Origin: an uncultured Bacteroidales bacterium
GTDB taxonomy: Bacteria; Bacteroidota; Bacteroidia; Bacteroidales; UBA7960
Direction: 5' to 3'
Assembly: GCA_964624065.1 (NCBI GenBank)
Contig: CAZUWF010000001.1
Coordinates: 35,018-99,017 of the forward strand
DNA length: 64,000 bases
Each line of letters begins with the position of its first letter. Within the stretch, counting starts at the first letter, position 1. Below the pieces are notes generated by a model that was not told the origin of the DNA, did not search any database, and was given only the letters and a program-made list of their open reading frames with translations. Below, piece by piece: positions 8,899-40,897 of this stretch. A program made the position numbers and the translations under genes.

Positions 8899-10542
8899 TC
8901 AGGTTTGGACTTGAACTTCCGAAACAACCTTTCCGTTTTCCATCAAAACAATCCTATCGGACATGTATTTCACTACTGCCTTGTCGTGGGAGATGAATAT
9001 GTATGTTAGCCCGAAATCATCCTTCAGGTCGTTGAGAAGGTTTAGCACTTGAGCCTGCACCGATACATCTAAAGCCGACACAGGTTCGTCGCAAATTAAA
9101 AACTCAGGCTCGAGGGCCAAAGCCCTTGCAATGGCAACTCGCTGCCTTTGTCCGCCCGAGAACTCATGAGGGTATCGATTAAAGTGCTTTGCATCCAGGC
9201 CAACTCGCTCGAGCAGGTGTTGAATTTTCTCGGTTCGCTGTCGGTCGTTTCCGAGCAGACCGTGCACCCGCATTGGCTCAAGTATTGCATTGCCAACAGC
9301 CATTCCTGGGGTTAACGATGAGTAGGGGTCTTGAAAAACAATTTGAAGCTTGGACCTGAATTTCCTCAATTCCGCTGGTGTCATGGCCATCAAGTCTGTC
9401 CCCTTGTAAATCATTTTTCCCATTGAAGGCTCCACCAACCTCATAATTGACCTCCCGAGCGTTGTCTTGCCGCAGCCCGATTCACCCACCAATCCCAGTG
9501 TTTCGCCTGGGTAAACCCTAAGCGAAACGCTACGGAGCGCTTCAAAATGTTTCAGTGGGGTTCCGAAAATGCTACGCTTCGTTACAAAGCGTGTCACTAG
9601 GTCTTTTATCTCCAAAATAGGGATTGCGGCTGAATCGTTAAATCCTCTACTTATTGGGTGGGATTTTCTTGGCTCGAAACCAATTTTATTGTTGATGAAA
9701 TCAGCAACGGTGGGAAGTCGGATTGGGCTGTTTTTCTCGGATGGCCTGCAAGCCAGCAGGGCACGGGTGTAGTTATGGGTTGGGTTGTTGAAAATGTTGT
9801 CAACAGCACCCTTCTCCACAATATTTCCTTTTTGCATTACTGCAACATTGGCGGCCACTCTCGAAACCACCTCAAGGTCGTGGGTGATGAAGATTATTGC
9901 CATCCCAAACTTTTTTTGAAGGAACAACAACAGCTCCAATATGCTATCTTGCACCGAGGCATCAAGAGCGGTGGTGGGTTCGTCGGCAATTAGCAGGGTT
10001 GGATTGCAGGCAATGGCAATGGCTATCATTACCCGTTGCCTTTGACCACCCGATAGTTCGTGAGGATAGGCGGTGTAGATCCTTTCGGGGTTTGGTAGCC
10101 TTACTTCTTCAAAAAGGGACAGAACTTTGGGCTTTGCCCCCTTTTTGCCGGACTGTCCGTGCCATATTAAGACCTCTTCTACCTGGGCACCGCAGCGTTG
10201 AACCGGATTAAGCGAAGTCATAGGTTCTTGGAAAATCATAGAGATATGCCTTCCCCTGGTTGACTGCAGCCGTTCCTTGGTCATTGACAAAAGATCAATC
10301 CTTCCAAACTTGGGATGTTCAAACCAGGCCTTGCCACTGGTAACACGGCTGCTGTTCTTGCCAAGCAACCCCATTAAAGCTAGCGCAGTTACAGTCTTAC
10401 CAGAGCCCGACTCCCCAACGATTCCCAAGGTTTCACCATACATAAGGTCGAAGTTCGAAGAGTTTACAGCCCTTACAATACTATTGTCGGTGGTAAATTC
10501 AACCGAAAGGTCCTCAACTGAAAGTAATGGCAACTTGGTCAT
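8899..10542 (-). CDS. ABC transporter ATP-binding protein with duplicated NBD (Dpp/Opp-type fused ATPase)
   Basis: 547 aa with two Walker A motifs (GESGSGKT, GESGCGKT) and two LSGGQRQR signatures. No permease or binding-protein gene is adjacent. Confidence 0.92.
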   Translation of the reverse strand: MTKLPLLSVEDLSVEFTTDNSIVRAVNSSNFDLMYGETLGIVGESGSGKTVTALALMGLLGKNSSRVTSGKAWFEHPKFGRIDLLSMTKERLQSTRGRHISMIFQEPMTSLNPVQRCGAQVEEVLIWHGQSGKKGAKPKVLSLFEEVRLPNPERIYTAYPHELSGGQRQRVMIAIAIACNPTLLIADEPTTALDASVQDSILELLLFLQKKFGMAIIFITHDLEVVSRVAANVAVMQKGNIVEKGAVDNIFNNPTHNYTRALLACRPSEKNSPIRLPTVADFINNKIGFEPRKSHPISRGFNDSAAIPILEIKDLVTRFVTKRSIFGTPLKHFEALRSVSLRVYPGETLGLVGESGCGKTTLGRSIMRLVEPSMGKMIYKGTDLMAMTPAELRKFRSKLQIVFQDPYSSLTPGMAVGNAILEPMRVHGLLGNDRQRTEKIQHLLERVGLDAKHFNRYPHEFSGGQRQRVAIARALALEPEFLICDEPVSALDVSVQAQVLNLLNDLKDDFGLTYIFISHDKAVVKYMSDRIVLMENGKVVSEVQVQT

Positions 10543-10960: not shown

Positions 10961-12050
10961 ATGGTTTACACCGACGACATTCAAGATATGGCAAAGAGGC
11001 TTGAGGCCTTGAGGAGGTTTCTTTGACATTGATAACCGTATAGAGCAAATCAAAAAAAAGACCAAAGAAAGCGAGCAGCCCGATTTTTGGAGCGACCCCA
11101 AGGCTGCCGAAGTCAAGCTTCGGGAGGTTAGCGAGCTTAAAAAATGGACTTCATCATATCAAAAGGCTCTCACGGAGCTTGAAGACCTTAGGATTCTCTT
11201 TTCGTTTATGGAGGCTGGTGAGGCCAGTGAAGGGGAGGTTGACCATCAGTTTAAGACCCTACAGAAGAGTATCGAGGGGCTTGAGTTTAAGAAAATGCTC
11301 GGCAAGGAAGAAGACAAACTCGGGGCAATTCTCAACATAAACTCTGGGGCTGGAGGAACCGAAAGCCAAGATTGGGCCGAAATGCTCATGCGAATGTACC
11401 TCCGATGGGGCGAGAAGAACAATTACAAGGTGAGGCTTCTTGACGAACAAGAGGGCGACGGTGCGGGGATAAAAAGCGCGTCGCTCGAACTCGAAGGGGA
11501 TTTTGCCTACGGATACCTCAAGGGCGAAAACGGTGTTCACAGGCTGGTGCGACTGTCGCCATTCGACTCAGCCAACCGTCGCCACACCTCCTTCGCATCG
11601 GTTTATGCCTATCCCGTTATCGATGACAATATTAACATAGAGATCAACCCTGCCGACATCAGTTGGGATACCTTCAGGTCAAGCGGTCCCGGCGGGCAAA
11701 ACGTCAATAAAGTCGAAACTGCTGTAAGGCTACATCACCAGCCAAGCGGTATAGTGGTTGAATGCCAAGAAACCAGGTCGCAGCTCCAAAATCGCGACAA
11801 GGCAATAATGATGCTCAAGTCCCAACTTTATGAAATAGAACTTCGAAAGAAAAGGGAAAAACTTGACGAAATGGAAAGCACCAAGAAAAGAATTGACTTC
11901 GGCTCGCAAATCCGAAATTACGTTTTTCACCCATACAAGCTCGTAAAGGATTTAAGAACGGGCGTAGAAACCTCCAACGTTCAAGGCGTTATGGATGGCG
12001 ATCTCGAAGATTTCATCAAAGCCTTCCTTATTCAATTTGGCGAAAGCTAA
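10961..12050 (+). CDS. prfB: peptide chain release factor 2, made by programmed +1 frameshift (10961-11023 joined to 11025-12050)
   Basis: Frame 0 reads [21 protein letters not shown] then TGA. Skipping T11024 gives [29 protein letters not shown]..., which is in frame with the 280-aa ORF 11208-12050. That ORF carries the SPF and GGQ motifs ([24 protein letters not shown]). Confidence 0.95.
11012..11027 (+). other. RF2 recoding site AGGAGG-ttt-CTT TGA C
   Basis: The SD-like AGGAGG (11012-11017) lies 3 nt before the slippery CTT (11021-11023). The in-frame TGA (11024-11026) is followed by C. This is the same architecture as the E. coli prfB site. Confidence 0.9.
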
Positions 12051-17664: not shown

Positions 17665-19257
17665 ATGCTGGTGCACCAAGATAGAGATTATCCTCAAAAT
17701 ACAGACAATGTGTCGATTAGACAAAAAACACTTGAGTTGAAGGAGCGTATGCAAGGCAAGCTGCAAGGCGGTGGCCAGAAGGCCATTGAGAAACAGGCTG
17801 CCCTAGGCAAACTTACCGCCCGTCAGCGCATTACATCCATTCTTGACCCCAATTCATTTCACGAATACGATCTTTTGGTTGAACACTCGGCAAAAGATTT
17901 CGATATGGACAAGAAAAGTCTTCCGGGCGATGGGGTTATTACGGGTACCGGGACCATTAGCGGGCATCCTGTATGTATTTTTGCGCAGGATTTTACCGTG
18001 GCTGGGGGCTCGCTCGGCCGAATGCACGCCGGCAAAATTACCAAGATAATGGATCACGCTATGAAGTTAAAGATTCCTTTAATAGGGATTAACGACTCCG
18101 GCGGGGCTCGCATTCAGGAGGGGGTAAACTCATTGGCGGGTTATGGAGAAATCTTTTATCGCAACACACAAGCCTCCGGTGTTATACCTCAAATCTCCGT
18201 AATATTAGGCCCTTGCGCCGGTGGTGCAGTTTATTCTCCGGCACTGACCGACTTTGTTTTCGTGGTTGAGAATATTTCCAAGATGTTCATTACCGGACCA
18301 GAGGTTATCAAATCGGTACTAGGCGAGGAAATAAGCATGGAAGACCTAGGTGGGGCAATTACCCACAGTGAAATAACTGGTAACGCACATTTCTATGCCA
18401 AAACCGAGCTGGAGTGCTTCGAGCAGATAAAAAAACTTTGTAGTTTCATACCCTGGAACAACACAAAAAAGGCGGCACCAGCCCCAAGGCAATCGCCCAA
18501 TTCACGCAAGTACAAGATTAGCAACATCATTCCAGCCGACCCTCGCGAGCCTTATGATGTAAGGGATGTGGTTAGGGCGATTGTTGACGACAGCGACTTC
18601 TTCGAAATCCATGAGCTTTTTGCGGCAAACATAGTCATTGGTTTCGGACGCATTAATGGCGAAACAGTTGGGTTTGTGGCAAACCAACCCCTGGTTTTGG
18701 CGGGCGTCCTTGATGTTGATTCTTCTGATAAGGCAGCCCGATTTATTAGGTACTGCAACGCCTTTGGCATTCCATTGGTAACATTGGTCGATTTGCCAGG
18801 GTACTTGCCGGGCATTGATCAGGAGCACGCAGGGGTAATTAGGCACGGCGCTAAGATCCTTTATTCTTACAGTGAGGCAACGGTGCCAAAAATCACCGTT
18901 ATCCTCAGAAAAGCTTATGGCGGTGGATATATCGCCATGTGCTCAAGGCACCTTTTGGCCGATTTCGTTTTTGCATGGCCAATTGCCGAAATTGCAGTTA
19001 TGGGCCCTGAGGGAGCCGCAAATATCATCTTCAGGAGCGAAATAATGAATTCAGAGAATCCCGACGAAACACGGGCTGCCAAGGTGGAGGAATACAAGAA
19101 GAAATTTGCAAACCCTTACATTGCGGCCGCCCATGGTTACGTGGATGCAGTAATCGAACCCGACCAAACAAGAGACTTCGTGGCTCACGCGCTTGAAATT
19201 TCGGTGCTCAAGTCAGAAAAAAATCCCGCAAAGAAACATGGATTGATTCCCTTGTAG
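17665..19257 (+). CDS. acyl-CoA carboxylase carboxyltransferase subunit (propionyl-CoA carboxylase beta / methylmalonyl-CoA decarboxylase alpha type)
   Basis: 530 aa. Motifs: KLTARQRI..LLD..SF.E, FAQDFTV.GGSLG, INDSGGARIQEG, RKAYGGGYIAM. Confidence 0.92.
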   Translation: MLVHQDRDYPQNTDNVSIRQKTLELKERMQGKLQGGGQKAIEKQAALGKLTARQRITSILDPNSFHEYDLLVEHSAKDFDMDKKSLPGDGVITGTGTISGHPVCIFAQDFTVAGGSLGRMHAGKITKIMDHAMKLKIPLIGINDSGGARIQEGVNSLAGYGEIFYRNTQASGVIPQISVILGPCAGGAVYSPALTDFVFVVENISKMFITGPEVIKSVLGEEISMEDLGGAITHSEITGNAHFYAKTELECFEQIKKLCSFIPWNNTKKAAPAPRQSPNSRKYKISNIIPADPREPYDVRDVVRAIVDDSDFFEIHELFAANIVIGFGRINGETVGFVANQPLVLAGVLDVDSSDKAARFIRYCNAFGIPLVTLVDLPGYLPGIDQEHAGVIRHGAKILYSYSEATVPKITVILRKAYGGGYIAMCSRHLLADFVFAWPIAEIAVMGPEGAANIIFRSEIMNSENPDETRAAKVEEYKKKFANPYIAAAHGYVDAVIEPDQTRDFVAHALEISVLKSEKNPAKKHGLIPL

Positions 19258-29676: not shown

Positions 29677-31284
29677 GTGTATAGAATTAGCTCACACGTA
29701 AAATCCGAGAGCCCAGAATTCGCAGAAAACTTCCGTCATAATGCAGCAGTTTTGGATGACTACCGCCGCATAATGCGAAGAACAATGCAGGGTGGGCCGG
29801 AGGGTGCAATTGCCAAACACAGGTCGCGCAACAAGTTGCTTGCACGCGAACGCATTGACTTGCTTATAGACCCATGTACACCATTCTTGGAGCTGTCTCC
29901 GTTGGCCGCATACGGACAGTATCATGATAGTTTTCCGTCCGCTGGGATCATTACCGGCATAGGTGTTATCCATGGTCATGAAACGGTGATAGTGGCCAAC
30001 GATGCCACCGTAAAGGGCGGCACTTATGTGAAGGAAACCATCCGAAAGCACGTTAGGGCACAGGAAATAGCCATGCAAAACAAGCTGCCGTGCGTTTATA
30101 TGGTGGACTCTGGTGGTGTTTTCTTGCCAAACCAGGCAGAGGTTTTTCCTGACAAGGAGGATTTTGGACGCATTTTTTTCAACCAAGCCCGCCTTTCGGC
30201 ACTTGGCTGCCCGCAGATATCAATAGTAATGGGTTCGTCAACTGCTGGTGGTGCATACATCCCGGCCATGAGTGACGAATGCATAATTGTAAAAAACCAA
30301 GGCACCATTTTCATTGGTGGACCGCCATTGGTAAAAGCGGCCACGGGCGAAATTGTTACGCCCGAAGAACTTGGTGGTGCCGAGGTGCATACTACAAAAT
30401 CGGGTGTCGCCGACCATTTTGCCGATAACGACCAACATGCCATCAGTTTGTGCAGGAGCATTTTCTCAACGCTGCAGCCCTCCAAGAAACAAAAGCTTGA
30501 AATGTGGGAGCCGGAAGAGCCAATGTACGACCCGGGTGAGCTTTTGGGAATAATTGAATGTAACCCCAAAAGGCAAACCAATCCATACGAATTAATTGCC
30601 CGCATTGTTGATGGCAGCAGCTTTCACGAGTTCAAGGCGAGGTATGCCACAACACTTGTAACAGGATTTGCCCACATTTTGGGTTACCCGGTTGGCATTC
30701 TGGCCAACAATGGGGTCTTGTTTGCCGAATCTTCGCTCAAAGGGGCACATTTCATCCAGCTATGCAACTTTCGTCGTATCCCCATACTTTTCTTGCAGGA
30801 CATTACAGGCTTTATGGTGGGAAAACATTACGAAACTTCAGGTCTTGCCCGGGATGGTTCAAAGCTGGTGCACGCAGTTGCCAATGCTTCGGTACCCAAA
30901 ATAACAGTCATAACAGGTGGCTCTTACGGAGCAGGCAATTATGCAATGGCCGGGCGTGCTTTCGACCCCCACTTCTTGTTTGTGTGGCCGGGGTCGCGCA
31001 TATCGGTTATGGGTGGACAACAAGCCGCAAAAGTGCTCTCGCAAGTAAAAATTGACCAATTGGCTGCACAAGGCAAATCGCCCAATATGGATGAGATTGA
31101 AAATATGAAAGCCGAAATACTTGGCAAATACGAAAGGGAGGGATCGCCTTACTATAGTACCTCGCGTCTGTGGGACGATGGAATTATTGAGCCGACACAA
31201 ACCCGCTTAATGGTTGCGATGGCTATAGCCACAACGCTCAACAACCCTTATGGTGAGCCACGAAGCGGTATTTACCGAATGTAA
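29677..31284 (+). CDS. methylcrotonoyl-CoA carboxylase carboxyltransferase (beta) subunit
   Basis: 535 aa with a GTG start 13 nt after the metG stop. NKLLARERIDLLIDPCTPFLELS resembles the human MCCC2 N-region. Also ANDATVKGGTY, MVDSGG and GGSYGAGNYAM. Confidence 0.88.
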   Translation: MYRISSHVKSESPEFAENFRHNAAVLDDYRRIMRRTMQGGPEGAIAKHRSRNKLLARERIDLLIDPCTPFLELSPLAAYGQYHDSFPSAGIITGIGVIHGHETVIVANDATVKGGTYVKETIRKHVRAQEIAMQNKLPCVYMVDSGGVFLPNQAEVFPDKEDFGRIFFNQARLSALGCPQISIVMGSSTAGGAYIPAMSDECIIVKNQGTIFIGGPPLVKAATGEIVTPEELGGAEVHTTKSGVADHFADNDQHAISLCRSIFSTLQPSKKQKLEMWEPEEPMYDPGELLGIIECNPKRQTNPYELIARIVDGSSFHEFKARYATTLVTGFAHILGYPVGILANNGVLFAESSLKGAHFIQLCNFRRIPILFLQDITGFMVGKHYETSGLARDGSKLVHAVANASVPKITVITGGSYGAGNYAMAGRAFDPHFLFVWPGSRISVMGGQQAAKVLSQVKIDQLAAQGKSPNMDEIENMKAEILGKYEREGSPYYSTSRLWDDGIIEPTQTRLMVAMAIATTLNNPYGEPRSGIYRM

Positions 31285-31294
31285 AGATCCAATC

Positions 31295-32077
31295 ATGAAA
31301 GCATTCCATACCATAAAAATTATCATAAACGACCAAATTGCAACAATCTGGCTATCACGACCTGAGAAGCTCAACGCCATTGATCAGGAAATGGCTGTTG
31401 AACTCCGCGAGGCTTTAAATGCATTGGCGGTGGACGACGATGTAAGCGCGTTGGTATTGCGAGGAGAGGGTAGTGCCTTTTGTGCCGGAGCCGATTTGGG
31501 CTGGATGAACGACACCAATCTCGATCAAGATTGTCGGCCTGGCTCACTACTGCCCCCTTTGTTCAAAACCATTTTTTACTTTCCCAAACCATTGGTGGTA
31601 GTGGTACAGGGTAAGGCTCTGGGAGGTGCATTTGGACTTATGGTTGCAGGCGATTTTGTGCTGGCCTGCAGCGATGCCACCTTTGCATTTGCAGAGGTGA
31701 GGCTTGGGTTGGTTCCTGCCACCATATCGCCATTTGTTGTAAGGAGAATCGGGGAGTTCAAAGCACGCCAGCTAATGCTAAAAGGGGCGAGCTTCGGAGT
31801 CACTGATGCATTGCACGCAGGTCTGATTGACCTGGTAGCGCCATCTTCGGCCATGGAGAGCGAGCTGAAAAACCTTTGCCAGGAACTTCAAAAAAATGGG
31901 CCAGGGGCAATGCGCACCTGCAAGAGAATGTTAATTCACATATCAGAAAACAAGCTTGACAACAACCTGTTTGCTTACACCTCAGAAACGCTTGAAACCA
32001 TAAGGAGTGGAGCAGAAGCTCGCGAAGGAATGAATGCTTTCATTGAAAAGCGTCAAGCGGTATGGAGACAAAAATGA
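31295..32077 (+). CDS. enoyl-CoA hydratase/isomerase family protein, methylglutaconyl-CoA hydratase by context
   Basis: Crotonase fold (LSRPEKLNAI, GEGSAFCAGADL). The internal ATG at 31295 was chosen. The stop overlaps the next start (ATGA at 32074-32077). Confidence 0.85.
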   Translation: MKAFHTIKIIINDQIATIWLSRPEKLNAIDQEMAVELREALNALAVDDDVSALVLRGEGSAFCAGADLGWMNDTNLDQDCRPGSLLPPLFKTIFYFPKPLVVVVQGKALGGAFGLMVAGDFVLACSDATFAFAEVRLGLVPATISPFVVRRIGEFKARQLMLKGASFGVTDALHAGLIDLVAPSSAMESELKNLCQELQKNGPGAMRTCKRMLIHISENKLDNNLFAYTSETLETIRSGAEAREGMNAFIEKRQAVWRQK

Positions 32078-34065
32078 CTGAAGCAAGGAACATAAACAAA
32101 GTTTTGGTAGCCAACCGTGGTGAAATTGCGGTTAGGGTTTTTGACACACTGCACCAATTGGGCATTTGCTCCGTGGCAGTTTGTACAGAGGCCGATGCCG
32201 GAGCTCTTCATTGCCAAATTGCTGCAGAAAGGCACATGCTTAAAGGCAAAACACTTGCAGAAACCTACCTGAATGGCTCTCAATTGATTGACATTGCCAA
32301 AAGGTGCGGTGCCGATGCCATTCACCCCGGCTATGGGTTCTTGTCCGAAAACTCCGATTTTGCGCAATCTGTTGTTGATGCGGGTCTGGTTTTCATTGGT
32401 CCTCCTGCGGAAGCCATCCGCAAAATGGGTAACAAAAAGCAGGCCAGGGCCATTGCCAAAGAATTGGGCATACCTGTGGTAGAAGGAGGGGAAGGGACAA
32501 AAGAAGAACTATTGGAAAAGGCAAGGGGCATTGAATATCCCATAATTATCAAAGCCAACGCCGGGGGTGGGGGTAAGGGAATGCGAATAGTTTTTTCGGA
32601 AGGCCAACTTTATGAGTTTTTGGAAGCAACCCAACGCGAAGCCCAAAATTATTTTGGCAATCCTGAGGTTTACATTGAGAAGTACCTCACAAACCCCAAG
32701 CACATCGAAATTCAGGTTTTGGGCGACAAGCACGGGCAGATTGTAACTTTTTTGGAACGCGAATGTTCGGTTCAAAGACGCCATCAAAAGATAATTGAAG
32801 AATCGCCGGCCCCAAATCTTACCCAATCACTTCGTGACGAACTGCAAAATGCAGCCCGTAGGCTCGCACAACACATACAATACGAAAGTGCTGGTACCGT
32901 TGAATTTCTCGTGCAAGGCGAGAATTTTTATTTTCTGGAAATGAATACCCGAATTCAGGTCGAACACCCGGTTACGGAAATGATTGCCGGAATAGACCTT
33001 GTAAGCGAGCAAATCAAAATTGCATCAGGCAGGCCGCTTGGCTTTTTGCAACAACGCATAAACACAACCGGCCACGCAATTGAAGTGCGGGTCTATGCCG
33101 AAGATCCCGACAATGATTTCACGCCATCGCCAGGCGACATTCTGCTGTACCAAAAACCCGAAGGTAGCGGCCTTAGAATCGACAGCTCCCTCAATGGCCC
33201 GGGTACGGTAAGCAGTTTATACGATCCAATGGTTAGTAAGGTGATTTTTCGCGCCGGCACCAGAGAAACTGCAAGAAAAGAATTAATTCAGCACCTGAAA
33301 AACTACATAATAATAGGAGTTAAAACCAACCTTGCCTATTTGACCGAGCTTTTGTCGTCCAATGCATTCATTGAAGGTGCTTTCCACACCAACCTTATTG
33401 ATGACGCCCCTGAGTTGTTTGGCAAAAAACGCAATAAACCCATTACCGATAAATTGCTTTTGGCAATGGCGTTTACGTTTATTTGTCAATCGGCCAACAA
33501 GAAAGCCAACAATATATGGCAAAGTATTGGCCCTTGGCGATTGATGCCACGGGCTAACCTTCTAATTGACCAAGAAAGGCTTGAACAAGATTACGTCTAT
33601 CACAATCCTCGGGAGATATCAATCCAGAATGGCCTTGGTCAAAAAACATTTAGGCTTTTGGAGCGCACCAACCACTCCTTGATTGTTGAGGTCGGTGGCA
33701 CCAGCCACACAATACATTACTTGGCAACTAACGGCGAGGTAAACTTTCAGTACGAGGCTACTACGGCAAGTGTAAAGCCGCCCAAACATCTGGGTCAGGA
33801 CATTCTCTCCGACATTAACACCAACACTGAAATGGAAGGGGAAATGATAAAACGCGCACCATTGCTCGGGACCGTCGTAAAAGTTTCGGTCAATGAAGGC
33901 GACCTGGTCAACAGGGGAGATGCCTTGGTAATACTTGAATCAATGAAAATGGAAAATATAATCGTTGCAACCGCTAGAGCTTTTGTGAAGAAGATTGAGG
34001 TTAAAGTGGGTGACGTGGTAGCCTATGATAGCCCCTTGGTGCATTTGTCAAAGATCTATGTGTAA
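32074..34065 (+). CDS. biotin carboxylase + BCCP fusion (methylcrotonoyl-CoA carboxylase alpha subunit by context)
   Basis: KVLVANRGEIAVRV, ATP-grasp motifs, EMNTRIQVEHPVTE, and a C-terminal biotinyl domain ILESMKMEN. Confidence 0.9.
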   Translation: MTEARNINKVLVANRGEIAVRVFDTLHQLGICSVAVCTEADAGALHCQIAAERHMLKGKTLAETYLNGSQLIDIAKRCGADAIHPGYGFLSENSDFAQSVVDAGLVFIGPPAEAIRKMGNKKQARAIAKELGIPVVEGGEGTKEELLEKARGIEYPIIIKANAGGGGKGMRIVFSEGQLYEFLEATQREAQNYFGNPEVYIEKYLTNPKHIEIQVLGDKHGQIVTFLERECSVQRRHQKIIEESPAPNLTQSLRDELQNAARRLAQHIQYESAGTVEFLVQGENFYFLEMNTRIQVEHPVTEMIAGIDLVSEQIKIASGRPLGFLQQRINTTGHAIEVRVYAEDPDNDFTPSPGDILLYQKPEGSGLRIDSSLNGPGTVSSLYDPMVSKVIFRAGTRETARKELIQHLKNYIIIGVKTNLAYLTELLSSNAFIEGAFHTNLIDDAPELFGKKRNKPITDKLLLAMAFTFICQSANKKANNIWQSIGPWRLMPRANLLIDQERLEQDYVYHNPREISIQNGLGQKTFRLLERTNHSLIVEVGGTSHTIHYLATNGEVNFQYEATTASVKPPKHLGQDILSDINTNTEMEGEMIKRAPLLGTVVKVSVNEGDLVNRGDALVILESMKMENIIVATARAFVKKIEVKVGDVVAYDSPLVHLSKIYV

Positions 34066-34066
34066 A

Positions 34067-34094
34067 CAAAACCCTCAACAATTAAGGGTTTTTT
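34067..34094 (+). terminator. hairpin plus T-tract after the carboxylase alpha gene (possible attenuating terminator)
   Basis: aaaaccct-caacaatta-agggtttt, then ttgtgttt. This is an 8-bp, A/U-rich stem starting 2 nt after the stop. Confidence 0.45.
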
Positions 34095-34168
34095 GTGTTT
34101 CATCCAATTAAAGAGCCAGTTGTTACAGCAATTTTTTTACTTTTAGCAAGTCATAACATGTTTTATTG

Positions 34169-35320
34169 ATGATTACCAGTCCTTACCTAACCCAATCCCA
34201 CCATGATTTAAGGCAGCGAGTGCGTGAGTTTGCCGAGAGAGAGATAAAGCCCATTGCGGCCGAGCTTGATGAAGGTGAGATTTTTTCGAACGAACTAACT
34301 GCCCGAATGGGCCAAATGGGATTTTTTGGCATCCAGGCACCCAAAGAGCTTGGCGGCCAAGACCTTGATACTTTGTCTTACATTATTATTGTTGAGGAAC
34401 TTGCGCGTGTTGATAGTTCGCAAGCCGCCACGGTTGCAGCCGTCAACTCCTTGGGCATTGCCCCCATATTAAAGTATGGCACCGAGGAGCAAAAGCAACG
34501 ATTCATTCCCAAGCTTTGCACCGGAACGATGATATGGGCCTTTGGGCTCACCGAAGAAAACGCTGGCTCTGATGCCCTGGGTGCAGAAACCACGGCAGAA
34601 TTGGCTGACGGACTTTGGGTTATAAACGGCAGTAAGCGACACATTACCAACTCGGCCGCCGACATTTCGGGGGGTGTAACCTTACTGGCTGTAACGGGCG
34701 AAAATAAAGGCAGGAAGAAGCTGTCAACAATCCTTGTTGAGCGTGGCACACCTGGATACAATGTGGAGCGCATGACAGGCAAAATGATGTGGCGAGCCAG
34801 CGATACTGGCAAATTGTTTTTCAATGATTGCAAGGTGCCCAAAGAGAATCTTCTGGGAGAGGAAGGCCAAGGAGGCCGCATAATGCTAAACACCCTCGAC
34901 TCAGGGCGACTTTCCATTGCAGCCATAGGATTAGGTCTTGCCCGCGGTGCCATGGAGGCATCGGTAGAGTACGCCAAAAGTAGGAGTCAATTCGGAAAAC
35001 CCATTTCAAAGTTTCAAGTTGTTAGCTTCAAACTCGCTGATATGGATATGAAAATAGAATTGGCTAAAAACACACTTTATCATGCATGCTGGTTAAAAGA
35101 CAACAATATTCAGTATGGTCGTGAAGCGGCAATGTCAAAATTGTACGCTTCGGAGATTGCCAGAGAAATTGCCAACGAAGCAGTTCAAATTCACGGTGGC
35201 AACGGCCTGTTCAAACCACACCCGGTTGAAAGGTTTTATCGCGACCAGCGATTGCTGCAAATTGGAGAGGGCACTTCAGAAATATTACGCCTCGTAATAT
35301 CAAGATATTTAGGCTTGTAA
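34169..35320 (+). CDS. acyl-CoA dehydrogenase (SCAD/MCAD-type catalytic Glu); candidate isovaleryl-CoA dehydrogenase by context only
   Basis: 383 aa from the ATG at 34169 (the track start at 34166 is TTG). GLTEENAGSD, and the C-terminal QIGEGTSEILRLVISR. Confidence 0.9.
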   Translation: MITSPYLTQSHHDLRQRVREFAEREIKPIAAELDEGEIFSNELTARMGQMGFFGIQAPKELGGQDLDTLSYIIIVEELARVDSSQAATVAAVNSLGIAPILKYGTEEQKQRFIPKLCTGTMIWAFGLTEENAGSDALGAETTAELADGLWVINGSKRHITNSAADISGGVTLLAVTGENKGRKKLSTILVERGTPGYNVERMTGKMMWRASDTGKLFFNDCKVPKENLLGEEGQGGRIMLNTLDSGRLSIAAIGLGLARGAMEASVEYAKSRSQFGKPISKFQVVSFKLADMDMKIELAKNTLYHACWLKDNNIQYGREAAMSKLYASEIAREIANEAVQIHGGNGLFKPHPVERFYRDQRLLQIGEGTSEILRLVISRYLGL

Positions 35321-35329
35321 AAAGTAGCC

Positions 35330-36331
35330 ATGGAGCAAAGGAAAAAAGAACACATTGAACTTGCATTTGACTCGCAGGTAGCCGCTAAGGACCTTGATGC
35401 CAGGTTTGATTATGAGCCCATGCTCAGTCCCCATCCAAATGGGTCAACCATCCCTACCACTCATTTTTTGGGTAAGGAGCAAAAGCTGCCAATGTGGGTG
35501 TCGTCAATGACTGGAGGCACCGAAATGGCCGGTAAAATAAATCGTAACCTAGCCAAAGCTTGCAGGGAGTTCGGCATTGGAATGGGATTGGGGTCTTGTC
35601 GTAGCATTATTGACGATGATGCCTATTTGGCCGATTTTGATATGAGGGATTTAGTTGGCGATGATCTTCCCTTATATGCAAACCTCGGTATCAACCAGGT
35701 GGAAACACTTTGCCTGAACAAGCAAGTTGACAAAATTACCCGATTGGTGGAAAAGCTCCGCGCCGACGGGCTTTTCATCCACGTAAACCCCTTTCAGGAA
35801 TGGTTTCAGCCCGAAGGTGATAGACTGGTACGACCTCCGATTGAATCGGTGCAAGAACTGCTCGAACTAGTTAACTTTCCAATAATTGTTAAGGAAGTAG
35901 GGCAGGGGATGGGTTTAGAAAGTCTGCGGGCATTGCTTAAATTGCCTGTAGCGGGAGTAGAATTTGGGGCTTTTGGAGGCACCAACTTTGCGAAACTTGA
36001 ATTGATGCGTAACAATGAGAAAACCAAGGAGGTTTTCGAACCACTTTCAAACATAGGGCACGATGCCTATCAAATGGTAGGTATGGTAAATAGTCTGGTG
36101 GCCGAGGAAGGTGACAAAATAAAATGTAATCAGCTTATAATATCAGGAGGAATTAAGTCATACATTGACGGGTATTACCTAATAAATAAATCAAAAATTC
36201 CGGCCATTTACGGACAGGCCTCCACTTTTCTTAAATATGCTATAGAGAATTATGAGCCATTGAGAGAGTACATCTCACATCAAGTGAGCGGGCTTAAAAT
36301 GGCGTATGCCTACTTGCGTGTTCGGGAGTAA
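35330..36331 (+). CDS. fni: type 2 (FMN-dependent) isopentenyl-diphosphate delta-isomerase
   Basis: 333 aa. MEQRKKEHIELA, VSSMTGGT, GVEFGAFGGTNFA and ISGGI are IDI-2 hallmarks. It starts 9 nt after the ACAD stop. Confidence 0.93.
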   Translation: MEQRKKEHIELAFDSQVAAKDLDARFDYEPMLSPHPNGSTIPTTHFLGKEQKLPMWVSSMTGGTEMAGKINRNLAKACREFGIGMGLGSCRSIIDDDAYLADFDMRDLVGDDLPLYANLGINQVETLCLNKQVDKITRLVEKLRADGLFIHVNPFQEWFQPEGDRLVRPPIESVQELLELVNFPIIVKEVGQGMGLESLRALLKLPVAGVEFGAFGGTNFAKLELMRNNEKTKEVFEPLSNIGHDAYQMVGMVNSLVAEEGDKIKCNQLIISGGIKSYIDGYYLINKSKIPAIYGQASTFLKYAIENYEPLREYISHQVSGLKMAYAYLRVRE

Positions 36332-36378
36332 GCAGACAGTTTCTGCTTTTTGGCACCCCAATCTAACCAACCTCCACT

Positions 36379-37698
36379 ATGAAAGTGCCCCAGCAAATAA
36401 TCAAAGGCTTTTCGAAAATTTCAAACTCCGAAAAACTTGATCTGATTTCGAAGTTTTTTGAGGATCCAAAAAACATTAAACTTCAATTCGAATCGTTTCT
36501 TTATCCTGATTCTAAGGTTCAAGATATTCTCTTGCAAATAAGCGAAAACACAATAAGCAACTTCCCGCTTCCTTTCAATGTTGTGCCAAACTTTTTGGTG
36601 AACGACAAAATGTACGTATTACCCATGGTAACGGAAGAAAGTTCGGTTGTTGCGGCAGCTTCGTCAGCTGCCCGGTTTTGGGCCGAAAGGGGTGGTTTCA
36701 GGGCTCGAACAATCAACAACCTAAAGAACGGCCAACTGCATTTTCTCTACGCAGGTGATCCTGAAAAATTAAAGGCGAGTTTCCCTGAATTAAAATCATT
36801 CCTTTTGGATTACGTGAAGCCTGTTACAAAAAATATGGAAGGAAGGGGAGGAGGGGTTGTAAGCCTAGAACTAAAGGACAAGACCACCGACATTCCAAAA
36901 TACTTTCAACTGGATGTGGGATTCAGAACTCAGGACGCCATGGGGGCCAACTTCATCAACACCTGCCTGGAAGAACTTTCGGCGGGTATGTATGGATGGT
37001 TAAGCATTTCGGAGGCTTTCAATTCTGATGATTTTGAGCCGCTTATGGCCATTCTTTCCAATTACAACGATGGGTGCATTGTAAAAGTTTCGGTGTCTTG
37101 CAGCCTTACTGACCTTGAGGCTGCCACCAAAGGTTTTGGTAGAAAGGAGTTTGCCCGTCGCTTTGCACTGGCGGTGCAAATTGCAAACATTGACGTGCGC
37201 AGGGCCACCACGCACAACAAGGGAATAATGAATGGTGTTGATGCTCTGGTTTTGGCCACAGGAAATGATTTTCGTGCAGTGGAAGCCGGTGCCCACGCAT
37301 GGGCCGCACGCTCGGGAACCTATAAGTCGCTTAGTCGAGTCGAAATTGAAAACGACACTTTCAGTTATATTTTGGAAATACCCATTGCCCTCGGCACAAT
37401 TGGTGGGCTTACGGGCATACATCCTCTTGCAAGGCTTTCGTTGGAAATGCTTGGCAACCCGAGCTCAGAGGAGCTAATGATGCTGGCGGCATCCGCGGGG
37501 CTGGCAAACAACTTTGCAGCGGTTAAATCATTAACCACCACCGGTATTCAGGCAGGTCATATGAAAATGCACTTGCCAAATATTTTATTGCAGCTTAAGG
37601 CAACACCAGAAGAATCGGAAAGAGCAAAATCGCATTTCAAAGACAAGAAAGTGTCGCACCAGTCGGTTTCGCGGTATCTTCATGAATTGCGGAATTAA
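36379..37698 (+). CDS. mvaA: hydroxymethylglutaryl-CoA reductase, class II
   Basis: 439 aa. VLPMVTEESSVVAAASSAA, DAMGANFIN, ATHNKGIMNG and GTIGG are class II HMGR motifs. Confidence 0.93.
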   Translation: MKVPQQIIKGFSKISNSEKLDLISKFFEDPKNIKLQFESFLYPDSKVQDILLQISENTISNFPLPFNVVPNFLVNDKMYVLPMVTEESSVVAAASSAARFWAERGGFRARTINNLKNGQLHFLYAGDPEKLKASFPELKSFLLDYVKPVTKNMEGRGGGVVSLELKDKTTDIPKYFQLDVGFRTQDAMGANFINTCLEELSAGMYGWLSISEAFNSDDFEPLMAILSNYNDGCIVKVSVSCSLTDLEAATKGFGRKEFARRFALAVQIANIDVRRATTHNKGIMNGVDALVLATGNDFRAVEAGAHAWAARSGTYKSLSRVEIENDTFSYILEIPIALGTIGGLTGIHPLARLSLEMLGNPSSEELMMLAASAGLANNFAAVKSLTTTGIQAGHMKMHLPNILLQLKATPEESERAKSHFKDKKVSHQSVSRYLHELRN

Positions 37699-37720
37699 TG
37701 GTTAATATTCAATGGTTAAT
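37697..37720 (+). repeat. 10-nt direct repeat AATGGTTAAT x2 with 14-nt period, overlapping the HMGR stop codon
   Basis: AATGGTTAAT occurs at 37697-37706 and again at 37711-37720. It heads a 173-nt gap inside the otherwise tightly packed operon. Confidence 0.6.
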
Positions 37721-37871
37721 TATTTATGAAAACCAAACCTTGTTCTGCGGTGAGAGGTAAGCTTCAAGGGTTAGGCATTAACCTTCTAAAATCAGGGGTG
37801 AGCCGTTTGGTGTGACCGTTCAATCTACTTTGCATTTTTCATTGGATTATTTAAATAAACCAGCCTTTTGC

Positions 37872-38816
37872 ATGACCACGAAATTGCGCTTCGAATCACG
37901 CGGAAAACTGATGATAGCCGGAGAGTACCTGGTTTTGGCAGGGGCAAAAGCTCTTGCCATACCAGTGAGGTTCGGACAATCATTAAGCATAGAGGCCTTC
38001 CGGTACGGGCAACCAACAATTGATTGGGAGACCTACATTAAAGGTAACTTGTGGTTGAAAACAAGGTTTGTTGGAAGCAACCTTGATGCTCATCTGGCCA
38101 AGGAAGAAGACAACAGGCACATATACTGGCTAAGGGAAATTTTGATGGCTGCCCGTAAACTCAATCCTGAATTTCTCAAAAGCAACTTCGGGTGGGGGGT
38201 AAAAGCCGAAATAGATTTTGACATCAATTGGGGGTTGGGCAGCAGTTCCACTTTGATATCAAACATAGCCCTTTGGGCAAATGTTGATCAATTTAAATTA
38301 CATTTTATGGTGTCGGAAGGATCTGCCTACGATATTGCATGCGCCAGAAGCACCAAACCTATACTTTACACCTACATGGGAAGTGGTGCCAACCCTGAAG
38401 TTGAGCCAATTTCATTTAACCCTATTTTTTCGTCGCGGCTATTTTTCGTGTATAGTGGCAACAAGCAAAGCTCCGAAGTCAGCATTAGAACCTTCGATGC
38501 CAAACTTGTAAGCCCCGCCGATGTGCTATCCATTACCAAGATTTCTGAAGGAATGGCCAGAACTGACAGCTTGCCGGATTTTATGAAAATGATGGTACAA
38601 CACGAGTCGATAATTTCAAAATACACAGGGCTCCCTCCCATCAAACAGTATCTTTTCGATGACTTTCAGGGAGAAGTTAAGTCTCTTGGTGCCTGGGGTG
38701 GCGATTTTTTTCTTGCAGCCTCACAAGCCTCCCCCGAAAATATTGTTTCTTTCTTTAATAGAAAAGGATTTGATACAATTTTCTCCTTTGAGGAGATGGT
38801 TGCAAAAAATCCTTAA
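37872..38816 (+). CDS. GYDIA-family GHMP kinase (occupies the phosphomevalonate kinase slot)
   Basis: The ATG at 37872 gives MTTKLRFESRGKLMIAGEYLVLAGAKAL. GHMP motif II is NWGLGSSSTL. GSAYDIACA is the motif the family is named for. The track start at 37812 is GTG. Confidence 0.85.
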   Translation: MTTKLRFESRGKLMIAGEYLVLAGAKALAIPVRFGQSLSIEAFRYGQPTIDWETYIKGNLWLKTRFVGSNLDAHLAKEEDNRHIYWLREILMAARKLNPEFLKSNFGWGVKAEIDFDINWGLGSSSTLISNIALWANVDQFKLHFMVSEGSAYDIACARSTKPILYTYMGSGANPEVEPISFNPIFSSRLFFVYSGNKQSSEVSIRTFDAKLVSPADVLSITKISEGMARTDSLPDFMKMMVQHESIISKYTGLPPIKQYLFDDFQGEVKSLGAWGGDFFLAASQASPENIVSFFNRKGFDTIFSFEEMVAKNP

Positions 38817-38827
38817 ATAAGCATTTT

Positions 38828-39916
38828 ATGTACAGCACACCCTCCGTATCAAAAGAAACACCATCCAAGGCATCGGGTAATGTTTGCTGGGTAAGTCCCT
38901 CCAACATTGCCTTGATTAAATACTGGGGAAAAAGCACCGGACAAATTCCGTTGAATCCTTCAATTAGCTTCGTTTTGAGAGATAGCGTGGTTTCAATAAC
39001 GATTTCTTACGTTTTCGATCCTCAAAAAAGCTTTTGCCTCGAGTTATTCGAGCTTAACGGTAGTCCTAATGCAGAATTTTCTGGTCGCATCGAAAAACAC
39101 CTTGAAAGCCTGAAAAACCTTTTACCTTTTTTGAATCACCTGCAATTGAGGGTTAAAAGCAAAAGCACCTTTCCCCATTCTGCCGGGATTGCTTCCTCGG
39201 CTGCCGCATTCAGCGCCTTAGCTTTGTGTCTTTGCACCATTGAGGCAGAATTGCTTGGAACCGATCGAGATGGAGATGTGTTTTACCAGCGAGCCTCATT
39301 CTTTGCCAGACTTGGCAGTGGAAGTGCATGCCGCTCGCTGTACGATGGAATGGTTTTGTGGGGAATGACAAACCTGTTTCCAAATTCGTCAGATATAAAG
39401 GCAATAAGGCTAGATGATTCGCAGGTTGACCCAATTTTTTTGACTTTGAGGGATGCGGTGCTTATTGTTGACGATTCGAAAAAAGAGATTGGCAGTTCGC
39501 AAGGCCACGAGCTTATGAACAATCACCCTTACCGTGAGCAGCGAGTTGCCCAGGCTAATGAAAACCTATCAAAACTCGTAGCGGCTCTAGCAAGCGGAAA
39601 CACTAATTTGTTTGCCGATGTGGTTGAGAACGAAGCACTGAGCCTGCATAGTCTTATGATGTCTTCAAATCCGGGCTACATTTTGATGAAACAAAACACA
39701 TTACTGATGATCGAAAAAATTCGCAAATTCAGGAAGAGTCAAAACGTTGATGTTTGTTTTTCACTTGATGCCGGTCCAAACATCCACCTGCTGTATTTTG
39801 AGAGGGACAAGGAGGCCGTCAAATCATTTATAACCAACGATCTTGCACATCTATGCATTAATGGTCGTTGGATTGATGACGCCATAGGCGTCGGGCCCAA
39901 ACGATGCAGCCCCTGA
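38828..39916 (+). CDS. mvaD: diphosphomevalonate decarboxylase
   Basis: 362 aa. SPSNIALIKYWGK, FPHSAGIASSAAAFSALA, GSGSACRS and FSLDAGPN are MDD hallmarks. Confidence 0.9.
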   Translation: MYSTPSVSKETPSKASGNVCWVSPSNIALIKYWGKSTGQIPLNPSISFVLRDSVVSITISYVFDPQKSFCLELFELNGSPNAEFSGRIEKHLESLKNLLPFLNHLQLRVKSKSTFPHSAGIASSAAAFSALALCLCTIEAELLGTDRDGDVFYQRASFFARLGSGSACRSLYDGMVLWGMTNLFPNSSDIKAIRLDDSQVDPIFLTLRDAVLIVDDSKKEIGSSQGHELMNNHPYREQRVAQANENLSKLVAALASGNTNLFADVVENEALSLHSLMMSSNPGYILMKQNTLLMIEKIRKFRKSQNVDVCFSLDAGPNIHLLYFERDKEAVKSFITNDLAHLCINGRWIDDAIGVGPKRCSP

Positions 39917-39919
39917 AAA

Positions 39920-40897
39920 ATGAGAGCCAACGGAGATAAGTTTTTTGGCAAGGTAATGCTTTTTGGAGAGTACAGCCTTTTGTGCGGGTCGGCAGCACTA
40001 ACAGTGCCAATAACGAATTATTTTGCCAGGCTTAAGTTTCCAAGCTGTTCAATGTCTGTGTCAGAGTTTGATGCCGCACGAAAGTTCAACAACCAACTTC
40101 AACTATTCTTAGAATACTTGCAGGGTTTGCAGGCATTGAAAAATGTTGATTTTAATTTTGACCGGATGAAAGATGACCTGTCGGCTGGTTTGTACCTATG
40201 GTCAAGCATTCCAATTGGGTACGGACTGGGCAGCTCCGGCGCGCTTGTGGCAGCCATTTATCATCGTTATGCCTGTAGTCACTGGATTGAACCATCGAAA
40301 AATGAACATCTTTTGGCACTAAAAAGCATTTTTTCCAATATGGAGGCCTTTTTCCATGGTTCAAGCTCGGGCCTTGACCCGTTGACCAGTTACCTGAACA
40401 AGCCGCTTATGATAAAAGGTGATAAAAGCATTGGTGTAGTGACACATAAACTGAAGCCCTTTAGCAAAATTGGGGGATTCTTTTTGGTTGACACGGGTAA
40501 AATAAGAAACACCAAGTTCCTGGTTAATGCTTTTCACCGTAAATGTCAAAAATCTGGCTTTTTGGGAAAGCTCAAATACGAGTACATTCCTTCTAACAAT
40601 GCCTGCATCAATTCTATTATTGAAAATGAAGGAGCCATATCCGAGCTCATGAAACAATTGTCGAGCCTTCAGCTGGAGCTTTTCAGCGAAATGATACCGC
40701 CAGAGTTCCTGCAGGCTTGGACTAACGGCCTTGCATATGGTAAATTTTCCCTAAAGCTTTGCGGAGCAGGCGGTGGAGGCTACATTCTGGGCTATACAGA
40801 TGATTATGGTAGTTTATCTGAACAATTACCCATCCAAGACCTCGTTTTGCTCAACGAATTATTTGATTCCAACCTCACCACAGACCAGGACCCTTGA
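39920..40897 (+). CDS. mvk: mevalonate kinase (GHMP kinase)
   Basis: 325 aa. GKVMLFGEYSLL, the GHMP motif IPIGYGLGSSGALVAA, and C-terminal KLCGAGGGGY. It starts 3 nt after the mvaD stop. Confidence 0.8.
   Translation: MRANGDKFFGKVMLFGEYSLLCGSAALTVPITNYFARLKFPSCSMSVSEFDAARKFNNQLQLFLEYLQGLQALKNVDFNFDRMKDDLSAGLYLWSSIPIGYGLGSSGALVAAIYHRYACSHWIEPSKNEHLLALKSIFSNMEAFFHGSSSGLDPLTSYLNKPLMIKGDKSIGVVTHKLKPFSKIGGFFLVDTGKIRNTKFLVNAFHRKCQKSGFLGKLKYEYIPSNNACINSIIENEGAISELMKQLSSLQLELFSEMIPPEFLQAWTNGLAYGKFSLKLCGAGGGGYILGYTDDYGSLSEQLPIQDLVLLNELFDSNLTTDQDP

Follow-up and report, generated by a model that had tools for sequence, protein, structure and literature searches.

A liu-type leucine-catabolic module joined to the mevalonate cluster in a clade of uncultured Bacteroidales: a probable route from leucine or isovalerate to isoprenoids

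A block of nine genes at positions 29677–40897 of a stretch of DNA from an uncultured Bacteroidales bacterium was investigated by family searches and by comparison with related loci. The whole stretch (64 kb; contig CAZUWF010000001.1) is called the window here. The nine open reading frames (ORFs) are co-directional on the + strand. They encode, in order, the beta subunit of 3-methylcrotonyl-CoA carboxylase (MCC), a crotonase-family hydratase, the MCC alpha subunit, an acyl-CoA dehydrogenase (ACAD), type 2 isopentenyl-diphosphate isomerase (IDI-2), class II HMG-CoA reductase (HMGR; HMG-CoA is 3-hydroxy-3-methylglutaryl-CoA), a GYDIA-family GHMP kinase, diphosphomevalonate decarboxylase (MVD), and mevalonate kinase (MK). 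With a probability of about two in three, judged from sequence comparison, the block is a liu cluster in which the mevalonate pathway has replaced the lyase exit, and carbon from leucine or isovalerate would be channelled to isopentenyl and dimethylallyl diphosphate (IPP and DMAPP).

By predicted function, each step from isovaleryl-CoA through 3-methylcrotonyl-CoA, 3-methylglutaconyl-CoA, HMG-CoA, and mevalonate to IPP/DMAPP is represented in the window, and eight consecutive reactions are matched by nine adjoining genes. In the proposed route, isovaleryl-CoA, supplied by leucine or by the import of isovalerate, would be oxidized by ACAD to 3-methylcrotonyl-CoA. The MCC alpha and beta subunits would carboxylate this product to 3-methylglutaconyl-CoA at the cost of one ATP, and the crotonase would hydrate it to HMG-CoA. 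HMG-CoA would escape cleavage by a lyase and would be reduced to mevalonate by HMGR. MK, the GYDIA kinase acting as phosphomevalonate kinase (PMK), MVD, and IDI-2 would then convert mevalonate to IPP and DMAPP. An earlier note, made from the letters of the window, had listed nine co-directional genes of these families. All nine were found as ORFs where it had placed them, and the family searches agreed with the identities that it had assigned.

The conservation of the block was investigated by an HMGR-anchored scan with one genome per species, which gave 80 loci (numbered L001 and onward), and relatives with intermediate HMGR identity (57–73%) were looked up individually. The whole block was found in one of the 80 scanned loci, L001, from an uncultured Bacteroidales metagenome-assembled genome (MAG) whose HMGR is 81% identical to that of the window. 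The HMGRs of the other 79 loci, from Flavobacteriia, Saprospiraceae, Chitinophagales, and other Bacteroidales, were at most 53% identical. These loci had HMGR-GYDIA(-MVD-MK), sometimes with IDI-2 in front, and the MCC-ACAD module was fused upstream in none of them; lone carboxyltransferase-, ACAD-, or crotonase-like genes lay near HMGR in 3 of the 79. Every looked-up HMGR homologue of 57–73% identity was part of the nine-gene block in identical order and strand: L082 (73%), L081 (GCA_041686485.1, 63%), L086/L087 (GCA_007134045.1, 63%), L088/L089 (60%, L089 being from soda-lake sediment), and L090/L091 (57%). Partial copies were present in L092 and L093. The arrangement is not a chance one, since six or more independent lineages have the identical order. 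The earlier note had proposed the adjacency of the two modules in related genomes as a check; the order was kept in every tested relative with an HMGR identity of 57–81%, with differing flanks. The gene upstream of the block is MetRS in the window and a crtI-family desaturase in L001, and the other loci have a xanthine dehydrogenase (XDH)-like gene and an SsnA-like amidohydrolase gene there. In a protein collection, roughly seventy to eighty HMGR clusters (90% identity) were at least 57% identical to the window HMGR.

Within this clade, MCC beta (76–89%) and ACAD (77–88%) were the most conserved proteins of the block, compared with 57–81% for HMGR. The conservation of MCC beta and ACAD above that of HMGR supports purifying selection on the block. 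The gap between ACAD and IDI-2 was 4–63 nt among the gene-called clade loci.

None of the 81 Bacteroidota loci with a more distant HMGR (≤55%) had the block. Among them, L172 (55%) and L173 (54%) contained HMGR-GYDIA-MVD-MK only, without MCC or ACAD. Both share neighbours with the window, namely a sigma-54 activator (62% identical), LptE, and GroEL (78%), and L172 also shares RNR (69%). The fused state is considered derived because these two loci share the neighbourhood of the window yet carry the mevalonate genes alone. This comparison places the origin of the fused locus in the ancestor of a single Bacteroidales clade, which has retained it since. Liu-type genes, either together with IDI-2 or beside a resident IDI-2, would have been set in front of a pre-existing HMGR-GYDIA-MVD-MK cluster.

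Sister loci were found by an ACAD-anchored metagenome scan. The nearest ACAD orthologues outside the clade were 60–67% identical to the window ACAD, had the same QIGEGT motif, and stood beside MCC beta, hydratase, and MCC alpha genes (L094–L108). In L102, ACAD was followed by an HMG-CoA lyase-like (HMGL-like) gene, an acetoacetate-CoA ligase gene (941 bits), and a second HMGL-like gene. The L108 cluster contained a pair of HMGL-like genes together with 3-oxoacid CoA-transferase A/B. In L104, MCC alpha and ACAD were separated by two HMGL-like genes (116 and 51 bits with Pfam, for a gathering score of 29), and a neighbouring protein has a type IX secretion system (T9SS) sorting domain, which suggests an origin from Bacteroidota or another lineage of the Fibrobacteres-Chlorobi-Bacteroidetes (FCB) group. 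The best NCBIfam match of the lyase-like proteins of L102 and L108 was HMG-CoA lyase, at 137–199 bits against a cut-off of 246. Each of the three clusters has two HMGL-like paralogues, of about 281–287 and 334–336 amino acids (L102: 11143–11997 and 14026–15030; L108: 7096–8106 and 8103–8966; L104: 8015–9025 and 9116–9961).

By their gene content, the sister loci are complete leucine-catabolic clusters, with acetoacetate and acetyl-CoA as the predicted end products. The first four genes are shared by the clade; the lyase and acetoacetate-activating genes are gone, and IDI-2 and HMGR follow ACAD instead. The mevalonate genes would thus take the position in the cluster that is held in the sisters by HMG-CoA lyase and acetoacetate activation. 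This pattern supports the view that ACAD acts as the isovaleryl-CoA dehydrogenase (IVD) of the module, that flux would run toward HMG-CoA, and that HMG-CoA would be passed to HMGR. As evidence for a link between the two modules, the comparison with the sister clusters outweighs mere adjacency.

The MCC beta (carboxyltransferase) subunit is encoded at 29677–31284 (+; Pfam Carboxyl_trans, 485 bits). In searches against PDB sequences, it scored 661 bits against the Pseudomonas aeruginosa MCC beta subunit (3u9r), 655 bits against the human one (8j4z), and 673 bits against Mycobacterium tuberculosis AccD1 (4q0g). The score was 444 bits for the beta subunit of geranyl-CoA carboxylase (GCC, 5ikl) and at most 277 bits for true propionyl-CoA carboxylase (PCC) beta subunits. 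The top match was 9tps (690 bits), which its depositors named 'propionyl-CoA carboxylase'. These scores assign the protein to the MCC-type beta subunits, distinct from PCC and GCC. The MCC alpha subunit (biotin carboxylase and biotin carboxyl carrier protein, BCCP; 667 amino acids) is encoded at 32062–34065 (+). Its four Pfam domains (Biotin_carb_N, CPSase_L_D2, Biotin_carb_C, and Biotin_lipoyl) are all near full length, its best PDB match was the MCC alpha subunit 3u9s (459 bits), and its BCCP has the biotinyl-lysine motif ESMKME (SMKM). With complete biotin carboxylase domains and this motif, MCC is taken as an ATP-driven carboxylase. The earlier note had an ATGA overlap at the start of MCC alpha. 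The overlap exists if translation starts at ATG 32074; the ORF itself opens at 32062.

The hydratase is encoded at 31295–32077 (+; Pfam ECH_1, 177 bits). Its ORF opens at 31250, and the likely start is ATG 31295, 10 nt past the MCC beta stop. The best NCBIfam match was the LiuC/AtuE-type PRK05674 (210 bits, cut-off 426), and PRK07468 was also matched. The top PDB matches were uncharacterized crotonases and AtuE (4zu2). The place of the gene between the two MCC subunits, constant in all clade and sister loci, points to 3-methylglutaconyl-CoA as the substrate. A second acyl-CoA carboxyltransferase gene is present in the window at 17665–19257 (+), unlinked to the block. Its product is about 32% identical to the MCC beta subunit of the block and is MmdA-like (methylmalonyl-CoA decarboxylase alpha/PCC-beta type, 782 bits against a cut-off of 999); it presumably belongs to propionate metabolism.

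The ACAD gene is located at 34166–35320 (+), with a likely start at ATG 34169, and its product has four ACAD Pfam domains. Its best PDB match was Bcd (5ol2_C, 367 bits), compared with 228–236 bits for human and bacterial IVD. The protein is therefore nearest to Bcd/short-chain (SCAD)-type enzymes and is not an IVD orthologue, which refines the plain ACAD assignment of the earlier note. The predicted catalytic glutamate is at the position of medium-chain ACADs (MCAD). The motif QIGEGT is invariant among the clade ACADs, and Bcd-like paralogues have QIYEGT. According to the offsets of the PDB alignment, the glycine directly before the catalytic glutamate corresponds to residue 374 of human IVD. 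This glycine, which is tyrosine in other ACADs, was reportedly found by Tiffany et al. in 1997 to be important for branched-chain specificity. The glycine, shared with IVD, is supportive of a branched-chain substrate and not diagnostic of it. IVD has a different catalytic base (PMC10925408). ACAD homologues 45–88% identical to that of the window (L092–L171) have IGEGT in place of the canonical IYEGT. Among these homologues, only those of L093–L108 (60–81%) and a few distant ones (L138, L142, L147, and L162) lie near MCC-like genes.

On the mevalonate side, the gene at 35330–36331 (+) is assigned to IDI-2. TIGR02151 was its only NCBIfam match (207 bits, cut-off 281), and the only PDB matches were the IDI-2 structures 1vcf, 2zru, and 1p0k. 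HMGR (36379–37698, +) matched Pfam HMG-CoA_red with 272 bits and TIGR00532 with 268 bits, over the cut-off of 259.95, and is 100% identical to entry P0001 of the protein collection. MVD (38828–39916, +; MVD-like_N and MDD_C domains) scored 161 bits with TIGR01240 (cut-off 171) versus 78 bits with phosphomevalonate decarboxylase. The conserved HMGR-GYDIA-MVD-MK unit ends with the gene of a divergent MK (39920–40897, +; Pfam GHMP_kinases_N), with 87 bits for TIGR00549 (cut-off 163). The gaps of 9 nt between ACAD and IDI-2 and of 3 nt between MVD and MK given in the earlier note were both correct.

The GYDIA kinase is encoded at 37872–38816 (+), with ATG 37872 as its likely start, in an ORF that opens with GTG 37812. 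It matched NF040656 (GHMP_GYDIA) with 313 bits (cut-off 225), and the match begins at residue 27 of the ORF; this family is graded only as a 'hypothetical equivalog'. No relative was found in a PDB sequence search. The gene directly follows HMGR in about 70 of 80 Bacteroidota loci. By elimination, and on the basis of work by Hayakawa et al. (2017) to which PMC6107057 refers, the kinase would act as PMK. The spacer between HMGR and GYDIA is about 140–170 nt in the window (37699–37871) and in L001 (about 9641–9784). The same junction measures 5–9 nt in L082, L086, and L090, and 79–157 nt in L081 and L088.

HMG-CoA synthase (HMGS), thiolase, and HMG-CoA lyase had been described in the earlier note as absent from the 64 kb. 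Pfam detected no HMGS, thiolase, or HMGL-like protein among the non-nested window ORFs of at least 150 amino acids, and six-frame tblastn of the window with three probes (E≤1) gave no HMGS, thiolase, or lyase match. The HMGS probe was checked by Pfam (HMG_CoA_synt_N/C), and the matches of the lyase probe elsewhere were confirmed as HMGL-like. HMGL-like genes were found neither in the block nor in flanks of up to 10 kb on either side in the clade loci. No HMGS was found in any of the 173 loci fetched (tblastn over 171 loci, 2.54 Mb; Pfam gene calls for L172 and L173). HMGS lay within 10 kb of HMGR in 0 of 93 Bacteroidota HMGR loci, and its lack in the window therefore carries no weight as a sign that the genome has none. 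The further proposal that the clade is without any HMGS, with all isoprenoids (undecaprenol, menaquinone, and, in L001-like members, carotenoids) obligatorily made from leucine or isovalerate via the block, is possible but rather doubtful.

The junction between MCC alpha and ACAD was investigated for signals of transcription. A terminator-like hairpin with a T run, read from the sequence, occupies 34068–34100 (+). It has an 8-bp stem (34068–34075/34085–34092; AAAACCCT / AGGGTTTT) and a 9-nt loop, and begins 3 nt past the MCC alpha stop. Between the hairpin and the ACAD start lie about 70 nt. The hairpin named in the earlier note was thereby confirmed. The hairpin appeared in the minimum free energy (MFE) fold, and the whole spacer was no more stable than its shuffles (z = −0.6). 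A consensus terminator scanner passed over it, since the loop exceeds the limit by one base and the stem has only 3 G-C pairs; the same scan of the window gave 21 terminator-like sites versus 19 in the background. The spacer was 100–136 nt in all clade loci and was the only consistently long one. It aligned poorly across the clade except for one short motif. The Bacteroidetes −7 box has the consensus TAnnTTTG, and TTTACTTTTA at 34136–34145 (+) resembles it. This site is a candidate −7 box for an ACAD-mevalonate unit. The promoter scan used the sigma-70 consensus and not the Bacteroidetes promoter type. TTTACTTTTA occurs once in the window, and 35 of 100 shuffles hold it at least once, which is not significant alone. 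In L001, L082, L081, L086, and L088, this spacer contains an identical or nearly identical motif, (T/A)TACTTTTA(C/G/T). Rfam at gathering thresholds gave no match in the whole window, so no known riboswitch or leader was detected.

These features point to two adjoining transcription units, probably MCC beta-hydratase-MCC alpha and ACAD-IDI-2-HMGR-GYDIA-MVD-MK. We infer that ACAD, a gene of the leucine side, belongs to the mevalonate unit. The earlier note had proposed a 'hard-wiring' of leucine carbon into isoprenoid synthesis. This proposal is borne out as far as the modules are linked in relatives and the sister clusters have a lyase instead. Its single-operon form is uncertain because the terminator-like hairpin and the conserved promoter-like motif separate MCC alpha from ACAD.

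Several observations weigh against a leucine-to-isoprenoid route. The hairpin and promoter-like motif in the spacer suggest that the two halves need not share a transcript. IGEGT is widespread in a broad subfamily of ACADs whose members mostly lie away from MCC, and the nearest relatives of the window ACAD, the Bcd/SCAD enzymes, are often enoyl-CoA reductases in anaerobes. The sequence of the hydratase does not separate it from other crotonases, and the IDI-2, MK, and MVD scores are all under the curated NCBIfam cut-offs. HMGS, a lyase, or both may be located elsewhere in the genome, and with a lyase MCC could serve ordinary leucine catabolism. All of the sequences came from MAGs or metagenomes. 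The main rival explanation is that the block is two ordinary independent units that are neighbours by chance, with MCC, hydratase, and ACAD completed by a lyase elsewhere and the mevalonate operon fed by thiolase and HMGS elsewhere. The signals between MCC alpha and ACAD favour such a division. The absence of HMGS beside HMGR throughout the Bacteroidota loci also makes its lack in the window expected regardless, and Flavobacteriaceae have been reported to have, in general, every mevalonate (MVA) pathway enzyme except PMK (PMC4026382). However, adjacency and order hold over HMGR identities of 57–81% while the flanks are reshuffled. ACAD, a gene of the leucine module, is on the mevalonate side of the spacer, 4–63 nt before IDI-2, and the lyase-like genes inside the sister clusters have no counterpart in the clade block or in its flanks of up to 10 kb. 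Chance neighbourhood of independent units is thus considered unlikely, at odds well below those of the leucine-to-isoprenoid route.

Two other explanations are far less probable still. The earlier note had raised the reverse direction, from the mevalonate branch point to isovaleryl-CoA. HMG-CoA, made by an HMGS elsewhere, would be dehydrated, decarboxylated, and reduced to isovaleryl-CoA, the primer of iso-fatty acids, in an Aib-like manner. Bacteroidota lipids are dominated by iso-fatty acids, and the reactions of biotin carboxylases can run backward in vitro. The window ACAD is most like Bcd-type enzymes, which act with Etf as enoyl-CoA reductases in anaerobes, and Rnf genes near the block in L086 and L088 suggest an anaerobic lifestyle. 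Against this, the alpha subunit retains a complete ATP-grasp biotin carboxylase with its BCCP, which a decarboxylase would not need, and the orthologous sister modules are joined to lyase and acetoacetate activation, hence catabolic in ancestry. AibA/AibB-type (glutaconate CoA-transferase-like) and AibC-type proteins and mvaS were not found in the window. The reverse direction also offers no reason for clustering with MK, PMK, MVD, and IDI-2, and it is strongly disfavoured. It is equally improbable that the first module acts on another branched or terpenoid acyl-CoA and links isoprenoid breakdown or recycling to synthesis, in the manner of the Atu enzymes (geranyl-CoA carboxylase, isohexenylglutaconyl-CoA hydratase, and citronellyl-CoA dehydrogenase). 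In NCBIfam, the hydratase does match gamma-carboxygeranoyl-CoA hydratase best (the under-cut-off match of 210 bits), with AtuE among its top PDB matches, and ACAD is not a canonical IVD. However, the beta subunit, which determines the substrate, scored 661 bits against MCC beta and 444 against GCC beta, and the acetoacetate-CoA ligase or 3-oxoacid CoA-transferase of the sister clusters fits leucine catabolism from HMG-CoA to acetoacetate.

The leucine half of the block was compared with known liu clusters (liuRABCDE of P. aeruginosa and the FCB-type clusters L094–L108). MCC beta and alpha, a crotonase-type hydratase, and ACAD are common to all, and the sister loci L098, L102, L104, and L108 share the gene content of this half. 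Where liu clusters have the LiuE lyase or acetoacetate activation, the block has IDI-2, HMGR, and the lower mevalonate pathway. The window dehydrogenase is Bcd/SCAD-like with its glutamate at the MCAD position and is not a LiuA/IVD orthologue. The mevalonate half agrees in its four genes and their order with the Bacteroidota mevalonate cluster, HMGR-GYDIA(-MVD-MK), of which Flavobacterium johnsoniae is an example (PMC6107057, citing Hayakawa et al. 2017). IDI-2 stands upstream of HMGR in some Bacteroidota lineages; an upstream fusion of MCC, hydratase, and ACAD is confined to the clade whose HMGRs are 57% or more identical to that of the window.

The conversion of leucine to HMG-CoA and mevalonate was demonstrated by labelling in Halobacterium salinarum, Leishmania mexicana, and Trypanosoma brucei (PMC8791446, PMC5993337), and a leucine shunt was proposed from genomes for Calditenuis (PMC12979851). 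The earlier note had attributed the leucine/isoprenoid link to myxobacteria; the link is known, and it extends beyond them to these organisms. Their chemistry, established by labelling or metabolic reconstruction, equals that proposed for the block. The evidence for the block is of another kind, a conserved colinear bacterial locus known from its genes alone, and no report of a one-locus arrangement was found for the shunt organisms. In Myxococcus xanthus, work of the Bode laboratory is said to have shown that the aib-mvaS locus couples HMG-CoA metabolism to isovaleryl-CoA. This system runs in the opposite direction and uses HMGS, LiuC, the AibA/B decarboxylase, and the AibC reductase. The CoA-transferase, MDR-reductase, and HMGS families were not found among the scanned window ORFs, and crotonase is the only aib-mvaS family present. 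No description of a fused liu-mevalonate locus was found in the open-access literature. The conserved fused locus appears to be undescribed; the leucine shunt as such was already known from physiological work.

Flavobacterium species with a working MVA pathway and without HMGCS are a published puzzle (PMC12016392), for which the block is a concrete candidate route. If the clade has no HMGS, the block would be an HMGS-independent entry to the bacterial mevalonate pathway and would answer this puzzle. If the leucine-to-isoprenoid reading is right, a whole uncultured Bacteroidales lineage, with soda-lake sediments among its habitats, would tie its essential isoprenoids to leucine or isovalerate and not to acetyl-CoA. 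A nutritional dependency would be predicted, which could guide cultivation. The locus would also provide a genetic handle on the 'leucine shunt', hitherto known mainly by labelling. The leucine route may be cheaper for a fermenter, as one ATP is spent at MCC versus three acetyl-CoA, each potentially ATP-yielding, on the standard route. For directing branched-chain carbon into terpenoid production, the nine-gene cassette offers a ready-made design; a leucine-fed route has not yet been built in E. coli (PMC8791446).

Some neighbouring genes of the clade loci were also characterized. The desaturase gene of L001 (10–1482, +) encodes a member of the phytoene desaturase family (TIGR02734, 322 bits, over the cut-off) and lies co-directionally about 120 nt before the block. 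Neither the window nor any of the other loci fetched has a homologue. Its presence there suggests that the route may yield carotenoids, among other products, in the L001 organism. A conserved protein of 207–214 amino acids is encoded co-directionally after MK in L086 (14371–14997), L088 (14894–15517), L090 (14526–15164), and L091 (11981–12625). The L086 protein had no Pfam or NCBIfam match, and precomputed calls gave no Pfam domain for the other copies. The corresponding position of the window is occupied by TauE on the opposite strand. In L081, L086, L088, and L090 (1–3300 and 14000–21300), the XDH-like molybdenum hydroxylase and SsnA-like amidohydrolase genes are upstream of the block and a second amidohydrolase gene is downstream. 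The Rnf complex genes of L086 and L088 are also downstream. These flanks suggest an anaerobic lifestyle with degradation of purines or amino acids.

In another part of the window, the release factor 2 (RF2) gene at 10962–12050 (+) has the classic programmed +1 frameshift. The short ORF from ATG 10962 stops at CTT TGA C (about 11021–11027), with AGGAGG ahead of it. The PCRF/RF-1 domains resume in the +1 frame in the ORF at 11208–12050, where the Pfam match starts from profile position 70.

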